A stretch of 11,129 nt of DNA from IMG/VR virus record IMGVR_UViG_2617270947_000015, one strand, 5' to 3'. This document shows positions 1 to 9,587 of this stretch, piece after piece (position 1 is the first letter of the stretch; every line of letters starts with the position of its first letter). Source of the stretch: a virus. Its lineage: Duplodnaviria > Heunggongvirae > Uroviricota > Caudoviricetes. The notes under the pieces are model-generated. The model was not told the DNA's origin and did not search any database. It was given only the letters and a program-made list of their open reading frames with translations. Made by a program: the position numbers and the translations under genes.

Positions 1-327
1 TCACTTTTTCCAGAGGCGGTCGAACTCCGCCTTCGCAAAATAAGCGGAAGCCTGGCGAAGGATATCGTTACTGCGGCGCAGTTCACGATTTTCACGTTCC
101 AGCTCTTTCAGACGCTGACGTTCAGCGGTGGTGAGCCCTCCATCACCGCCCCCGGTATCCCGCTCATGCTGGCGAACCCAGACACGCAGAGTCTCCGGCG
201 TACAGCCAATCTTTGGAGCAATGGAACAAATTGTCGCCCATTGTGAGTCATATTCGCTCTGACTTTCCAGAACCATACGGACTGCCCGTTGACGGACTTC
301 GGGGGAAAAACGAGTATTTTTAGTCAT
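1..327 (-). CDS. IS3-family transposase OrfA (108 aa, HTH protein)
   Basis: Translation [21 protein letters not shown]...[32 protein letters not shown] has the typical IS3-family OrfA HTH plus leucine-zipper layout. It lies 54 bp inside the terminal inverted repeat. Confidence 0.85.
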
Positions 328-381
328 CCTGTTTACCTCTTTCTCAGGAAGTTTAGTCTCCAGGATTCCCGGGGCGGTTCA
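1..381 (-). mobile_element. Partial IS3-family insertion sequence (IS629/IS1203/IS3411-like); one terminus at 381, remainder off the left edge
   Basis: Read on the minus strand from 381 the sequence is TGAACCGCCCCGGGAATCCTGGAGACTAAACTTCC...AGGTAAACAGG-ATG, which matches my recollection of the IS629-type terminal inverted repeat followed directly by orfA. The orfA ORF is complete; orfB would lie beyond position 1. Confidence 0.8.
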
Positions 382-716
382 GGGGCTTCGTTCGTCCTGA
401 AAAACAGAATCTGCAAAATTTTGCCGAAATTATTCCGGTTATTTCCGGCCTTACTGGCGGGAGTGAAACCAATATTGTTAACGCCAGAGCGTTGCAGATG
501 TTTGATGATAAAAAGGGAGTAAATTTAACTTACACCCCTGACGGCAATCAGAATATGAGCATTATCTCTGAGTCAGGTTTCTACAAACTAATAAAAACAA
601 AAAGCGCCCCGTTGCCGGAGCGCCTTTGTGAACAATTAACCTACTGCGCAAAAAATGAATCTGAGCAGTGGGATTATATCAACCATGTGGAGAAGCGCCA
701 CAATTGCCGAATAACG

Positions 717-747
717 GGCAAAACAAAGGCCACCCGCTACGGTGGCC
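717..747 (-). terminator. Rho-independent terminator for the leftward small-gene operon
   Basis: Perfect 7-bp stem GGCCACC (728-734) / GGTGGCC (741-747) with a 6-nt loop. On the minus strand it is followed by TTTGTTTTG. It sits 80 bp downstream of the minus-strand ORF that ends at 827. Confidence 0.6.
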
Positions 748-826
748 CCTCGACACAAGCTACACGTTATCCCCAACGCATGAGCATTGCCAACAATGCC
801 ACATTTGCGGCTGGTGGGCAATGCAA

Positions 827-1000
827 TCAGTCTGGTTCAGTTCGTTGCCATACCTGCAATGAGCGCTTTTCCCTGTACTCTTTAAGGAATTGCTCAAGGG
901 CAAAAGCACATGGCGCGAATCTTTCTGATTCATGCTCTATCTTTCTGCGCCGTCTTTTCCGTGCCGGTGATAATGTTTTGGTCAATTCTTTATCGGTCAT
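827..1000 (-). CDS. Hypothetical small basic protein (57 aa from the second ATG)
   Basis: Lys/Arg/Glu-rich translation MTDKELTKTLSPARKRRRRKIEHESERF.... An AGGA lies about 9 nt upstream of the ATG at 1000; the ORF-track start at 1015 has no Shine-Dalgarno. It is second in the leftward operon and is followed by the terminator at 717-747. Confidence 0.5.
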   Translation of the reverse strand: MTDKELTKTLSPARKRRRRKIEHESERFAPCAFALEQFLKEYREKRSLQVWQRTEPD

Positions 1001-1057
1001 TGTGTTGTCCTGCATAGCAATGCGCCGTAGTTACTCACACCACGGCGCTGGTGATGG

Positions 1058-1237
1058 TTACTCCTGCTCTTTGGCCTTGCGGCGCTGGCGGCGTTTGATT
1101 TCGCCGCGCATGGCTGCGTTTATAAACTGTCCCGTGCTTTCGCCTTCTTCTTTCACGTTCTCCATGCCTTCAATAATTTCATGGGCAATACGTGCAGTTA
1201 CAGATTGTGATTTTGCATTCTTTGGACCCGTTGCCAT
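1058..1237 (-). CDS. Hypothetical small protein (59 aa); candidate regulator, first gene of the leftward operon
   Basis: The internal ATG at 1237 is preceded on the minus strand by GAGGGG at good spacing (GAGGGGTTAAAC-ATG). Translation is MATGPKNAKSQSVTARIAHEIIEGMENVKEEGESTGQFINAAMRGEIKRRQRRKAKEQE. It sits directly beside the operator-bearing divergent promoter region. The ORF-track start at 1276 is probably too long. Confidence 0.5.
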   Translation of the reverse strand: MATGPKNAKSQSVTARIAHEIIEGMENVKEEGESTGQFINAAMRGEIKRRQRRKAKEQE

Positions 1238-1257
1238 GTTTAACCCCTCATGTTTTT

Positions 1258-1339
1258 GGTGTAAGACAATATACACGAAAAAAAAATATTTTGAAGGGTT
1301 GACGTGTAAGACACCATTGTTTTACATTGTGTCTTACAC
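1258..1339. promoter_or_regulatory. Divergent promoter region with three copies of an 11-bp operator-like motif
   Basis: GGTGTAAGACA at 1258-1268, GTGTAAGACAC at 1304-1314 and its exact inverse GTGTCTTACAC at 1329-1339. Rightward candidate promoter: TTGACG (1299-1304) and TACATT (1323-1328), 18-bp spacer. Leftward candidate on the minus strand: TTCAAA and TATATT around 1270-1297. The motifs overlap the spacer or sit just downstream of the -10 of both promoters. Confidence 0.55.
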
Positions 1340-1436
1340 CTTATTGATGAAAGGCACAGAAACGACGAAACCCCGCACTGTAGGAGCAGTAACGGGGCTT
1401 CTAACCACCAACGATAGCAACAGTATCGAGGTAGCT

Positions 1437-1637
1437 ATGAGAAATCATACCACACACCCGAAAGGGCGGGACTCGCACAACCTGAATAAATACATCTGGC
1501 GTTTTATCGCCCTGAGCACGGCACAACCGCGCGTGATTACCATTGAGGCCACCAGCGAACAGGAAGCACGCCAGCAATCTCCGGCTGGCTGCGTGATGGT
1601 ATTTGCTGCCCGTATTCGTCAGGGGGTAGGCTTATGA
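1437..1637 (+). CDS. Hypothetical protein (66 aa), first gene of the rightward operon
   Basis: GAGGT Shine-Dalgarno 5 nt before the ATG at 1437. Translation MRNHTTHPKGRDSHNLNKYIWRFIALSTAQPRVITIEATSEQEARQQ.... Its stop overlaps the next start (ATGA). The long 492..1637 track ORF is in the same frame but its upstream part looks non-coding. Confidence 0.5.
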   Translation: MRNHTTHPKGRDSHNLNKYIWRFIALSTAQPRVITIEATSEQEARQQSPAGCVMVFAARIRQGVGL

Positions 1638-1864
1638 GCCAGGAAATCACACTACAACAGGCAGCAGAACGCGCCCACCAAATCGAAGTTATTTGCGCAC
1701 TGGCAGAGGATTACCCTAGCATGATGACCGACAGCGAATCAGGGGCAATCATCGGCTTACTTAAACGCCTTAGCGGTGAGGTCTGCGTATTCCTGAGCGA
1801 TGAACAGGAAAGAAGAACGCTTATTTCTAACGAAAAAAAATGCGGAGGGGTACATGTGCAATAA
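1634..1864 (+). CDS. Hypothetical protein (76 aa)
   Basis: AGGGGGTAGG Shine-Dalgarno upstream and ATGA overlap with the preceding gene, indicating translational coupling. Translation MSQEITLQQAAERAHQIEVICALAEDYPSMMTDSESGAIIGLLKRL.... Confidence 0.55.
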   Translation: MSQEITLQQAAERAHQIEVICALAEDYPSMMTDSESGAIIGLLKRLSGEVCVFLSDEQERRTLISNEKKCGGVHVQ

Positions 1865-2084
1865 AACCACACCGGACGCAGCAGAAGAAGCAATGCAAAT
1901 ACTGATACGTGCGCTCGTTGATGTTACCCACATGGTGGAGATTATGGAGAGAAAATCACAGTCGGAGCACGACAAAAGAAAACTTAAAACAATAAAAATA
2001 ATTGCCAAAAACTCGCTGATAAAAGTTACAGACATCCTTAATGAGGACATTAAAAGAATAAGGGAGAAAATTTGTGATGCATAA
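1854..2084 (+). CDS. Hypothetical protein (76 aa), AT-rich cargo gene A
   Basis: Internal ATG at 1854 preceded by GGAGGGG; the ORF-track start at 1800 would overlap the previous gene by 65 nt. Translation MCNKTTPDAAEEAMQILIRALVDVTHMVEIMERKSQSEHDKRKLKTIKIIAKN... is predicted helical. The local sequence is visibly more AT-rich than its flanks. Confidence 0.5.
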   Translation: MCNKTTPDAAEEAMQILIRALVDVTHMVEIMERKSQSEHDKRKLKTIKIIAKNSLIKVTDILNEDIKRIREKICDA

Positions 2085-2304
2085 AATCCCTTTTGAAGTA
2101 TTAATCCACTCTGAAAACGCATTAATTAAAGCACGCGAAATGAATGCGTTGTTAATTAAATTAATTGAAGTGCCGGAAGGTGGCGAAGATCATTCATCAT
2201 TAATGTTTGCCGCTGTTCAGACATTATTGACACCTGTTATTGATGAACTCAATAAGGCTATGGCAATTCACGAGAATAATAAAGCGCCCCACACCGGAGA
2301 ATAA
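2077..2304 (+). CDS. Hypothetical protein (75 aa), AT-rich cargo gene B
   Basis: ATG at 2077 overlaps the stop of the previous ORF (GTGATGCATAA) with AGGGAG upstream. Translation MHKIPFEVLIHSENALIKAREMNALLIKLIEVPEGGEDHSSLMFAAVQTLL.... AT-rich. Confidence 0.5.
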   Translation: MHKIPFEVLIHSENALIKAREMNALLIKLIEVPEGGEDHSSLMFAAVQTLLTPVIDELNKAMAIHENNKAPHTGE

Positions 2305-2609: not shown

Positions 2610-4360
2610 AACTGGCACCGAACGTAAAAAAACAACCACGCGGAATAAAACACAAAGACACAGAGGTAATTATTTTCGCGGGTAGTGATGCGTGGTCACA
2701 TGCAAAACAGTGGCAGGAGCAGGACGGCCCCGCATCCGGCGATAATGTGCCGCCTGTGTGGCTTGGGCCAAATCAGCTTGCCGAACTTGATGCGCTGAAA
2801 ATTGTTCCGGATGGGAAAAAGCGCGTAAGGCTGTACCAGGCCGGAGAACTGGATTTAGTGGAGACCAAAAAGATTGGTCAGAAGCTGGCGGCGGCAGATA
2901 TTCAGGACGCAAATTTTTACCCTGATGGTATGCACGGTCAGAAGGTGGAGAACTGGCGCGAATATCTGGCCCGTGAGCGCCAGAATCTTTCTGATGGTCT
3001 GGTCATTGAGCTTCCGGTAAAGCAAAAGGCGCAACTTTCGCAGATGGCGGACAGTGAGCGCGCGCAGCTGCTTGCCGATCGCTTTGATGGCGTTTGCGTA
3101 CATCCTGAAAGTGAAATCGTTCACGTATGGCGCGGCGGGGTATGGTGTCCGGTCAGCACAATGGAACTTAGCCGCGAAATGGTGGCGATCTATTCAGAGC
3201 ACAGGGCCACTTTCAGCAAGCGCGTAATCAATAACGCCGTGGAAGCGTTAAAAGTTATTGCCGAACCAATGGGCGAGCCGTCCGGCGATTTGCTGCCGTT
3301 CGCCAATGGTGCGCTTGACCTGAAAACGGGGGAATTTTCCCCGCACACGCCGGAGAACTGGATCACCACGCACAACGGCATTGAGTACACGCCACCAGCA
3401 CCAGGGGAGAACATCCGCGATAACGCGCCAAACTTTCATAAATGGCTTAAGCACGCAGCCGGAAAAGACCCGCGCAAGATGATGCGTATATGTGCCGCGC
3501 TGTACATGATTATGGCGAACCGGTACGACTGGCAGATGTTTATTGAGGCCACCGGAGACGGCGGGAGCGGTAAAAGTACATTCACGCACATAGCCAGCCT
3601 TCTGGCAGGGAAACAGAACACGGTAAGCGCTGAAATGACATCGCTTGATGATGCTGGTGGACGTGCGCAGGTTGTCGGGAGTCGTCTTATCGTCCTAGCT
3701 GACCAGCCGAAATATACAGGCGAAGGAACGGGCATCAAGAAAATCACGGGCGGTGACCCCGTGGAAATTAACCCGAAATACGAAAAGCGTTTCACGGCTG
3801 TAATCAGGGCGGTGGTGCTGGCGACCAACAATAACCCGATGATATTCACCGAACGGGCCGAAGGTGTGGCACGTCGTCGCGTGATTTTCCGTTTCGACAA
3901 TATCGTCAGTGAGGCCGAAAAAGACAGGGAGCTACCGGAAAAGATCGCGGCTGAAATCCCTGTCATTATCCGCCGATTGCTGGCGAACTTTACCGACCCT
4001 GAGAAGGCACGGGCTTTACTACTGGAACAGCGTGACGGTGATGAAGCACTGGCAATAAAGCAACAGACGGATCCGGTTATTGAGTTTTGCCAGTTCCTGA
4101 ATTTTCTGGAGGAAGCGCGCGGCCTGATGATGGGGGGCGGTGGCGATTCAGTGAAGTACACGACCAGGAACAGCCTTTACCGCGTCTATCTGGCGTTTAT
4201 GGCATACGCAGGCAGGAGCAAACCGCTAAACGTAAATGACTTTGGAAAGGCTATGAAGCCTGCCGCAAAAGTTTACGGACATGAATATATTACGCGGAAA
4301 GTTAAGGGGGTAACGCAGACTAACGCAATAACAACAGACGAGTGCGACGCGTTTTTATAA
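2606..4360 (+). CDS. Satellite/phage replication protein: P4/D5-family primase-helicase-like NTPase (584 aa)
   Basis: Walker A GDGGSGKST and Walker B-like RLIVLAD motifs in the C-terminal half, with the overall D5_N / P4-family primase C-terminal (SF3 helicase-like) layout. It is followed immediately by an iteron array. The N-terminal ~300 aa are of unclear domain identity. Confidence 0.85.
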   Translation: MKLAPNVKKQPRGIKHKDTEVIIFAGSDAWSHAKQWQEQDGPASGDNVPPVWLGPNQLAELDALKIVPDGKKRVRLYQAGELDLVETKKIGQKLAAADIQDANFYPDGMHGQKVENWREYLARERQNLSDGLVIELPVKQKAQLSQMADSERAQLLADRFDGVCVHPESEIVHVWRGGVWCPVSTMELSREMVAIYSEHRATFSKRVINNAVEALKVIAEPMGEPSGDLLPFANGALDLKTGEFSPHTPENWITTHNGIEYTPPAPGENIRDNAPNFHKWLKHAAGKDPRKMMRICAALYMIMANRYDWQMFIEATGDGGSGKSTFTHIASLLAGKQNTVSAEMTSLDDAGGRAQVVGSRLIVLADQPKYTGEGTGIKKITGGDPVEINPKYEKRFTAVIRAVVLATNNNPMIFTERAEGVARRRVIFRFDNIVSEAEKDRELPEKIAAEIPVIIRRLLANFTDPEKARALLLEQRDGDEALAIKQQTDPVIEFCQFLNFLEEARGLMMGGGGDSVKYTTRNSLYRVYLAFMAYAGRSKPLNVNDFGKAMKPAAKVYGHEYITRKVKGVTQTNAITTDECDAFL

Positions 4361-8975: not shown

Positions 8976-9587
8976 CTGGTTGATATTTTCGAAATTCGCC
9001 AGCGGCGAACATCGGGGAAACCAGCCTAACCCGTTGATATTTTCGGAAACCTCAATTTGAGGAAGTCGGCGCGGTAACTCGCTGAACTTAAAGCAAAGCG
9101 CAAAATTGCGCTTGCTGAATAATCATTATGATTACGCAGATGATTAAGGAATGACCGAAGGCGGAAATTCGCCTGTGGTTAATGGGGGAGTTGCAGATCT
9201 GCAACTCGACCATGAAACTACGGAAACTACCCGTAGTTTGGGTAGTAAGAGTAACACCCAGATTTTGGGGCTTACTCGTGATACCCAAATTTGGGGTATC
9301 GGTGGCAACCATAACGACTTTCGTTACGGTTGATGCTTTTACCCCATTGGGGGAAAGGTATTACGATAATCATAACACCTACCGAACAGGTAAAGCCCAC
9401 CAGCCTGATTAACGTTTAACCGGAAAAAAATTCCGGTAGGTGGGGATCCCCATATAGACATTAACGCCCCTCATGAATTGGTGCGCTTCCCCCTGGAAAG
9501 ATGATCCGCCTGTATATTTCTTGTGTCTATTTGTTCCACGTTGTTTCATACGGTGCACCGAACGGTGTAGTTAATGGTGTAGTCAAT
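8966..9587. repeat. Repeat- and palindrome-dense non-coding region between the last island ORF and phoQ (candidate att arm / regulatory region)
   Basis: Direct repeats GTTGATATTTTCG(A/G)AA at 8979-8994 and 9033-9049; GCGGTAACT at 8968-8976 and 9071-9079. Palindromes AAGCGCAA-aa-TTGCGCTT (9096-9113), GTTGCAGATCTGCAAC (9190-9205), AAACTAC-cc-GTAGTTT (9224-9239), CCGGAA-aaaaa-TTCCGG (~9420-9437), CGGTGCACCG (9551-9560). Tandem GGTGTAGTTAAT / GGTGTAGTCAAT (9564-9587). Confidence 0.5.

Follow-up and report, generated by a model that had tools for sequence, protein, structure and literature searches.

The stretch of DNA analysed here (11,129 nucleotides, hereafter the window) opens with the end of an insertion sequence (IS) that abuts a phage-derived island, and the question it raises is what the IS interrupted when it arrived and whether the island would be affected. 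A preliminary description of the sequence had placed an IS3-family terminus at position 381, at the left side of the island, next to about 330 bp without a convincing gene. Our analysis showed that the element is IS629 and that it interrupts, at codon 11, a conserved reading frame without stops, whose start is coupled to the preceding gene in 9 relatives and which appears to link the alpA unit of the island to its Icd/primase operon.

Read directly from the sequence, the minus strand from 381 to 361 is TGAACCGCCCCGGGAATCCTG. It carries the terminal inverted repeat of the IS3 family with its 5'-TG start (TGAACCGCCCCGGG...), and the outer end of this repeat is position 381. The orfA product encoded on the same strand matched HTH_Tnp_1 (PF01527) with 49 bits (E=7.4e-13). 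A programmed −1 frameshift signal with a pseudoknot, which is a trait of the IS3 family, is present at 46->1, where the ALIL pseudoknot (RF01497) scored 48.1 bits (E=9e-11); this is slightly below the gathering score of 50 because the edge of the window cuts the match. Positions 1–381 were 99.0% identical over 381 bp to LC567824.1, which is annotated as “IS3 family IS629”, 99.0% identical to copies with this annotation in Stx phages, and 99.7% identical to an IS copy in a phage 21 record. Because the terminal repeat, orfA, the ALIL element and the identity to IS629 agree, we conclude that the terminus at 381 is real. The element shares with IS629 (iso-forms IS1203/IS3411) the terminal repeat, orfA, the frameshift pseudoknot and 99% identity, and it differs from a full copy in that the window holds 381 bp only, without the orfB DDE transposase, the second inverted repeat or the target duplication.

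The window corresponds to bases 21–11149 of JHDM01000025.1 (GCA_000601175.1) with 0 mismatches, and this contig begins inside the IS. The same junction was found in three independent assemblies (the NCBI contig, one from ENA and one from Logan), the latter two of which also break within the IS, and in 0 of 5,426 complete E. coli genomes. In all homologues of the island the exact match starts at 382, which places the insertion point 83 nt 3' of the alpA stop codon and 31 nt 3' of the ATG of the long frame. A simple insertion predicts that roxA-int-alpA-...CCCGAACAAGGGCGGG is joined to the right end of IS629, with a left flank of ...CCCGAACAAGGGC(GGG) and a 3-bp duplication that is probably GGG; the predicted left junction had no match in a scan of JGI metagenome contigs. 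The insertion event itself is routine. A separate IS629-like insertion of 1310 bp, flanked by a 3-bp duplication of GTT, was observed in E. coli E300082 (L002 5073–6382). This copy includes orfB and the second inverted repeat. It lies in the last codons of alpA of a related island at abgR, 90 bp from the insertion site of the window; its host island has a broken long frame of 103 codons and a frameshift in the SSB gene.

The host of the insertion is an EcCICFT073-type phage-inducible chromosomal island (PICI) located between roxA and phoQ, the latter forming the right end of the window. Profile matches identified a D5_N/DUF5906 primase, SSB, a lambda-E-like capsid protein (Phage_cap_E) and an HDPD decoration gene, and the combination of a primase/replication gene with a small phage-derived late module, which is a trait of Gram-negative PICIs, is thereby present. 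None of the island genes in the window is disrupted, which suggests that there was no decay after the insertion. Islands with about 95% identity over about 90% of the island length are carried at roxA-phoQ by 43 complete genomes, among them that of CFT073, whose island is the model PICI EcCICFT073. The gene order in the IS-free homologues is roxA, a 21-bp att repeat, int, alpA, about 760 bp that are mostly unannotated in RefSeq, ylcI on the minus strand, and an icd-like gene; int and alpA occupy the left end in all of them. The direct repeat CGGTGTAGTTAATGGTGTAGT occurs at both ends of L003 (1087 and 12182) and is the probable att core. The island measures about 11.1 kb without the IS and about 12.4 kb with it. 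The terminus at 381 proposed in the preliminary description is thus confirmed by the terminal repeat, the HTH_Tnp_1 and ALIL matches, the identity to IS629 and the homologues that match from 382 onward. Its placement at the left side of the island is imprecise, because att, int and alpA lie further left in the IS-free relatives and the IS is therefore about 1.9 kb inside the island and not at its edge. Coordinates of the features discussed here are collected in Table 1.

Table 1. Features of the window around the IS629 insertion, with strand and supporting evidence
Feature	Position	Strand	Evidence or remark
IS629 left end (IS3 family)	1..381	-	sequence, HTH_Tnp_1, ALIL, identity to annotated IS629
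IS629 orfA, 108 aa	327->1	-	HTH_Tnp_1 domain
IS/island junction	381..382	.	equals 6000/6001 of L001; homologue alignment
AntA-type antirepressor 5' relic, codons 11–48	382..494	+	alignment with L005/L006
Long stop-free frame (eta-like), 417 codons + stop	384..1637	+	0 stops
BRO-N antirepressor middle relic	489..593	+	matches to L007, L008, P0072
Predicted intrinsic terminator of the leftward ylcI operon	600..627	-	12-bp stem, then TGTTTTTATT
Second terminator-like hairpin	725..750	-	10-bp stem, then GUUUUG
“ORF3” ATG of Fillol-Salom et al. 2018	780..782	+	in long frame; primer mapping
62-aa gene, antisense within long frame	827..1015	-	phrog_21027, E=1.6e-15
YlcI/YnfO-family gene, antisense within long frame	1058..1237	-	phrog_949, E=8e-19; RefSeq
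Divergent ylcI/icd control region	1259..1339	.	three GTGTAAGAC copies; promoters in both directions
Icd/Kil-like gene nested at 3' end of long frame	1437..1637	+	NF033153, 69.9 bits
att repeat, right copy, 21 bp	9563..9583	+	CGGTGTAGTTAATGGTGTAGT; beside phoQ

Over 382–716 the IS-free homologues are 99–100% identical to the window, and they contain an ATG located 53 nt 3' of the alpA stop. At the DNA level, codons 1–48 counted from this ATG share about 90% identity with the 5' end of an AntA antirepressor gene that is intact (266 aa) in L005 and L006, where it fills the equivalent slot (AntA domain in L006, E=2.5e-23). From 489 onward the sequence matches the middle of a BRO-N gene that occupies the same slot in L007, L008 and P0072. 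The reading frame is preserved where the AntA piece passes into the BRO-N piece and also at 593/594, where a deletion joins the BRO-N piece to the downstream frame, in the DNA just 5' of a hairpin that is kept in all variants. As judged from these alignments, the AntA/Bro-N hybrid at 382–593 is the relic of an antirepressor gene, which makes up about the first 70 codons of the long frame. The hybrid matched the PHROG Ant families with E=2.7e-5; a Pfam profile search of the relic returned no match for AntA (PF08346), and Bro-N (PF02498) reached 15.7 bits (E=0.023), against a cut-off of 25.6, over profile positions 37–85 only. RefSeq leaves this stretch unannotated in most homologues and calls a BRO-N pseudogene in some. 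Across the islands, an AntA/Bro-N antirepressor slot with swapping domains lies directly 3' of alpA. The same slot after alpA is found in the “Bro zone” of Gram-negative PICIs (PMC10111431) and with the EcCIMP1 antirepressor (PMC11773190), from which the window differs in holding an in-frame AntA/Bro-N hybrid relic that falls below both Pfam cut-offs. An intact antirepressor within 382–716 was considered and rejected, since neither Pfam domain reaches its cut-off and the gene lacks both of its ends.

The relic forms the first part of a much longer open frame. When stop codons were counted over 382–1640, the plus-strand frame that begins at 384 contained none until 1635, where the stop codon of the Icd-like gene closes it, as compared with 26 and 25 stops in the other two plus-strand frames and 14–17 in the minus-strand frames. 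Every segment of the frame is free of stops, among them 468 nt outside the relic that have no gene on the opposite strand, and the non-genic segments alone were stop-free in 0.045% of shuffles. The match to NF033153 spans residues 370–413 of the 417-codon frame. Outside the relic and the Icd part the translation is not protein-like, and a Pfam search of the long frame returned no domain besides the relic. Between the window and L003 the changes in YlcI are conservative and the opposing plus-strand frame is not protein-like, and the plus-strand frame therefore seems to be constrained for the absence of stops and not for a fold.

The frame is also open in related islands. It extends over 421–653 codons in eight of nine E. 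coli loci, as compared with 24–42 stops in each of the other frames, and the open loci include some with highly divergent ylcI and promoter regions (L003, L014, L005 and L007); the sole exception with a short frame is E300082. Loci from other species were fetched with the Icd-like protein from species-representative genomes, and untruncated loci were counted. The frame was open over 248–361 codons in 8 of these 11 (10–25 stops in the other frames), which come from E. ruysiae, Cedecea, Rahnella, Enterobacter, Superficieibacter, Rosenbergiella, Intestinirhabdus and Tenebrionibacter; the frames of the remaining three were short. The layout in the other species comprises alpA/HTH_17, an optional AntA/Bro gene, the long frame with a ylcI-like gene antisense inside it, and the Icd-like 3' end.

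In most relatives a Shine-Dalgarno sequence lies ahead of the frame's first ATG, and this ATG overlaps, or sits next to, the stop codon of the gene before it. Five loci (L005, L006, L016, L017 and L027) have a Shine-Dalgarno sequence and an ATG 5 nt 5' of the antA stop (TAA), L026 has an ATGA overlap at the start of the long frame, and at one locus the ATG lies 14 nt before the preceding stop. L024 and L025, which have no antirepressor gene, have the ATG 11–12 nt 3' of the alpA-like stop. Such a coupled start is present in 9 relatives and is absent in L007 and L023. The start used in the lineage of the window is the antirepressor ATG 53 nt after alpA, which the IS removed from the frame. The first in-frame start codons that remain in the window are TTG 492 and ATG 498, and no obvious Shine-Dalgarno sequence was seen upstream of either.

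These results bear on the remaining claims of the preliminary description. The view that 382–716 contains no believable ORF is contradicted by the plus-strand frame that stays stop-free from 384 to 1635 and by the AntA/Bro-N homology at 382–593. An IS-free homologue with the same sequence as plain intergenic DNA had been named as the observation that would speak against a disruption; the sequence is indeed present there and mostly unannotated, and it is part of the conserved stop-free frame and not inert. The suggestion that the IS may interrupt something is supported by its position in codon 11. The further suggestion that it may separate int and alpA from the rest of the island is plausible, given the insertion 83 nt after the alpA stop and an alpA-dependent transcript that crosses the equivalent of 382–784, as described below.

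An origin of the open frame by chance, or as a by-product of antisense genes, was considered separately and rejected on the basis of the shuffles and of the recurrence of the frame in divergent loci with coupled starts.

Several elements that face the opposite way lie within the frame. The hairpin at 600–627 folds with −20.6 kcal/mol (z=−4.5) and is conserved in all variants. The hairpin at 725–750 folds with −25.2 kcal/mol (z=−2.0) and was missed by the terminator pattern scan. From their sequence and orientation, both are predicted to be minus-strand terminators of the leftward operon of ylcI and the 62-aa ORF; the version of the 62-aa gene in the relatives is annotated as a hypothetical protein. 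Upstream of ylcI, the divergent control region contains three exact copies of GTGTAAGAC (two direct and one inverted), as compared with 0.06 expected, and these look like operator sites for some regulator. Consensus-level promoters were predicted in both directions within this region, and the one upstream of icd is the replication operon's own predicted promoter. Computed from the coordinates, the wobble positions of ylcI coincide with those of the plus-strand frame. The same arithmetic places the antisense genes (827–1237 in the window and the ylcI-like genes in L017 and L022–L027) always in the phase in which third codon positions coincide. This phase is thus shared by the window and seven loci from other genera, which are not independent events because the loci are related.

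The arrangement resembles the vis-eta/kil region of phage P4. In the P4 sequence, which we checked, the ATG of eta overlaps with the stop codon of vis (GCATGATGATG). The frame of kil stays open over 217 codons upstream; 199 of them belong to eta, and the final 65 codons of eta make up kil. P4 Kil scored 76.1 bits against NF033153, as compared with 69.9 bits for the Icd-like protein of the window, and the two proteins aligned with 28% identity. In the work of Forti et al. (1999), as it is relayed in PMC10111431, translation of eta stops transcripts from the late promoter from terminating, and the constitutive internal promoter yields terminated transcripts. The two systems have in common an AlpA/Vis homologue upstream, a long frame that begins at or near the preceding stop codon, and an Icd/Kil-like protein whose gene is nested in the 3' part of the frame, beyond an internal promoter. 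They differ in that the PICI frame is 2–3 times the length of P4 eta; that it contains ylcI, the 62-aa ORF and their terminators, whereas P4 eta contains no antisense genes; and that an antirepressor gene or relic lies between alpA and the frame, unlike in P4. The Phage_ASH domain, which P4 Eta matches with 82.4 bits, had no match in the window or in the four long ORFs from other genera. Rfam searches, which detected C4 (the CI immunity RNA) and isrK (seqA) in P4, returned neither with E<=1 in window positions 1–2200, L001 or L006. On our hypothesis the PICI frame is eta-like in its action and, given that Phage_ASH and C4/isrK are missing and antisense genes lie inside the frame, not a member of the eta sequence family. 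With antisense genes embedded in it, such an eta-like frame represents a variation on the known P4 device, and we found no description of one in the literature that we examined.

A P4-type immunity RNA in this region was also considered and rejected, as the Rfam search of window positions 1–2200, L001 and L006 yielded neither C4 nor isrK nor a further RNA family.

Published reporters of EcCICFT073 provide information on transcription across the site of the insertion. We mapped the primers of pJP1290 (Fillol-Salom et al. 2018 supplement) on CFT073 and found that the fusion runs from inside int, through alpA, to the window-equivalent position 784. The activity of this fusion requires alpA, and helper phages lambda and phi80 induce it, independently of SOS alone (PMC6092414). 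The span of pJP1290 and its reported activity indicate that an AlpA-dependent, helper-induced transcript crosses the stretch equivalent to 382–784, in which the IS is located in the window. The alpA-ORF3 region of EcCICFT073 lies in the same roxA-phoQ locus, is 94% identical over this stretch and also contains the long frame; it differs from the window in having no IS. In PMC6092414, ORF3 serves only as a reporter site, and the long frame is not described.

On this evidence we think it fairly probable that IS629 hit the “Bro zone” of an EcCICFT073-type PICI and removed the start of an eta-like frame, and that alpA was thereby uncoupled in cis and induction reduced or abolished; within this overall account, the functional consequence is the weaker half. 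In IS-free islands the frame begins at the ATG 53 nt after the alpA stop or, where the antirepressor is intact, at an ATG that overlaps the antirepressor stop. It stays open for 420–650 codons, passes both minus-strand terminators, the ylcI operon on the opposite strand and the divergent promoters, and ends as the Icd/Kil-like protein, with which the replication operon opens. If the region works as P4 vis-eta/kil does, helper-induced, AlpA-activated transcripts from the alpA promoter would be translated continuously along the frame. This translation would shield them from termination at hairpins and by Rho, and the replication and packaging genes would be reached. The IS removes the start of the frame together with the first 10 codons and would separate the alpA promoter from the downstream genes by 1.3 kb of foreign DNA; with the start lost and this DNA interposed, alpA would be uncoupled from these genes in cis and induction weakened or lost. 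We infer, from the comparison with P4 and the published fusions, that translation of the frame may prevent termination of the read-through transcript and that the IS may cripple the island by cutting the frame. Several points speak against this account: AlpA could activate the icd promoter in trans, the Phage_ASH domain and the C4/isrK RNAs of P4 are missing, some loci have short frames or no coupled start, most of the translation is not protein-like, the island genes are intact, and several samples share the junction.

Activation in trans is central to an alternative in which the insertion was neutral. Here, 382–600 is the remnant of a decayed antirepressor, the rest is 3' untranslated and terminator DNA, and the long frame has no function; AlpA acts in trans on the icd promoter, and the IS therefore just adds 1.3 kb. 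Consistent with an insertion into a dead gene, the antirepressor was already destroyed in IS-free relatives that are 99–100% identical over this stretch, RefSeq annotates nothing or a pseudogene at the relic, and icd has a consensus promoter upstream. The island genes are intact, and the junction occurs in at least three samples, so the insertion is tolerated. However, this explanation does not account for the absence of stops over 1.25 kb, for the maintenance of the frame across divergent sequences and genera with Shine-Dalgarno sequences and coupled ATG starts, or for the alpA-dependent transcription across the region, and we regard it as rather unlikely. IS629 drives rearrangements in Shiga-toxin-producing E. 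coli (STEC), and the IS might instead mark the breakpoint of an IS-mediated deletion or rearrangement in which int-alpA was lost or moved and the window was left as a stranded remnant. The source contig that begins within the IS, and the complete E. coli genomes that all lack the junction, would fit such an event. Nothing points to a deletion, however: the island resumes at the exact homologous base, its right side shows no loss, and E300082, which has a comparable IS629, shows an uncomplicated insertion that produced a 3-bp duplication and left int-alpA in place. We therefore consider a rearrangement highly improbable.

Returning to the loss of the frame start as the effect of IS629, we tentatively entertain a broader possibility suggested by the comparison among loci, namely that enterobacterial PICIs keep a “translated spacer” of 250–650 codons, coupled to alpA or the antirepressor, on which ribosomes would act as the antiterminator that allows helper-induced alpA transcripts to extend into the replication genes; the IS629 insertion studied here would then be a natural knockout. 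Such a spacer would be free of stops without conservation of its amino acids, would traverse the entire ylcI operon, terminators included, in antisense orientation and would end in Icd/Kil. In effect it would be a switch like that of P4 eta, but one that lacks both Ash domain and CI RNA.

In E. coli PICIs, EcCICFT073 among them, a conserved stop-free frame similar to that of P4 eta/kil extends across the kilobase that annotation leaves empty between alpA and the replication genes. If translation of this frame does couple the sensing of helper phages by alpA to replication and packaging, a gap in the induction of Gram-negative PICIs would be filled, and IS-bearing islands like this one would be useful natural mutants. 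The erratic “Icd-like” and BRO-N pseudogene annotations would also be explained.

These annotations take the form of N-terminally extended or “partial” Icd-like proteins and of BRO-N pseudogenes, which RefSeq places at varying positions of the frame (L003 3855–4262, L006 3545–3902 and hits H67 and H74–H77); they are probably a side-effect of the stop-free frame on annotation. Islands with an intact antA (L006 at about 3290–3540; also L005 and L016) contain ~250 bp of additional sequence within the long frame, which is unannotated, has a protein-like translation (YSTPEMQNILLQNAVGHAVRKAKNFAGG...) and is not in the window. Finally, the segment at 780–840 of the window, with the plus-strand translation MSIANNATFAAGGQC, is nearly invariant in its DNA (that for ...NNATFAAGGQ...) among islands that are otherwise divergent. 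It had no match in Rfam or Pfam, one genome annotates an “ash family protein” across it (H94), and the segment may represent a motif that is conserved at the RNA or the protein level.
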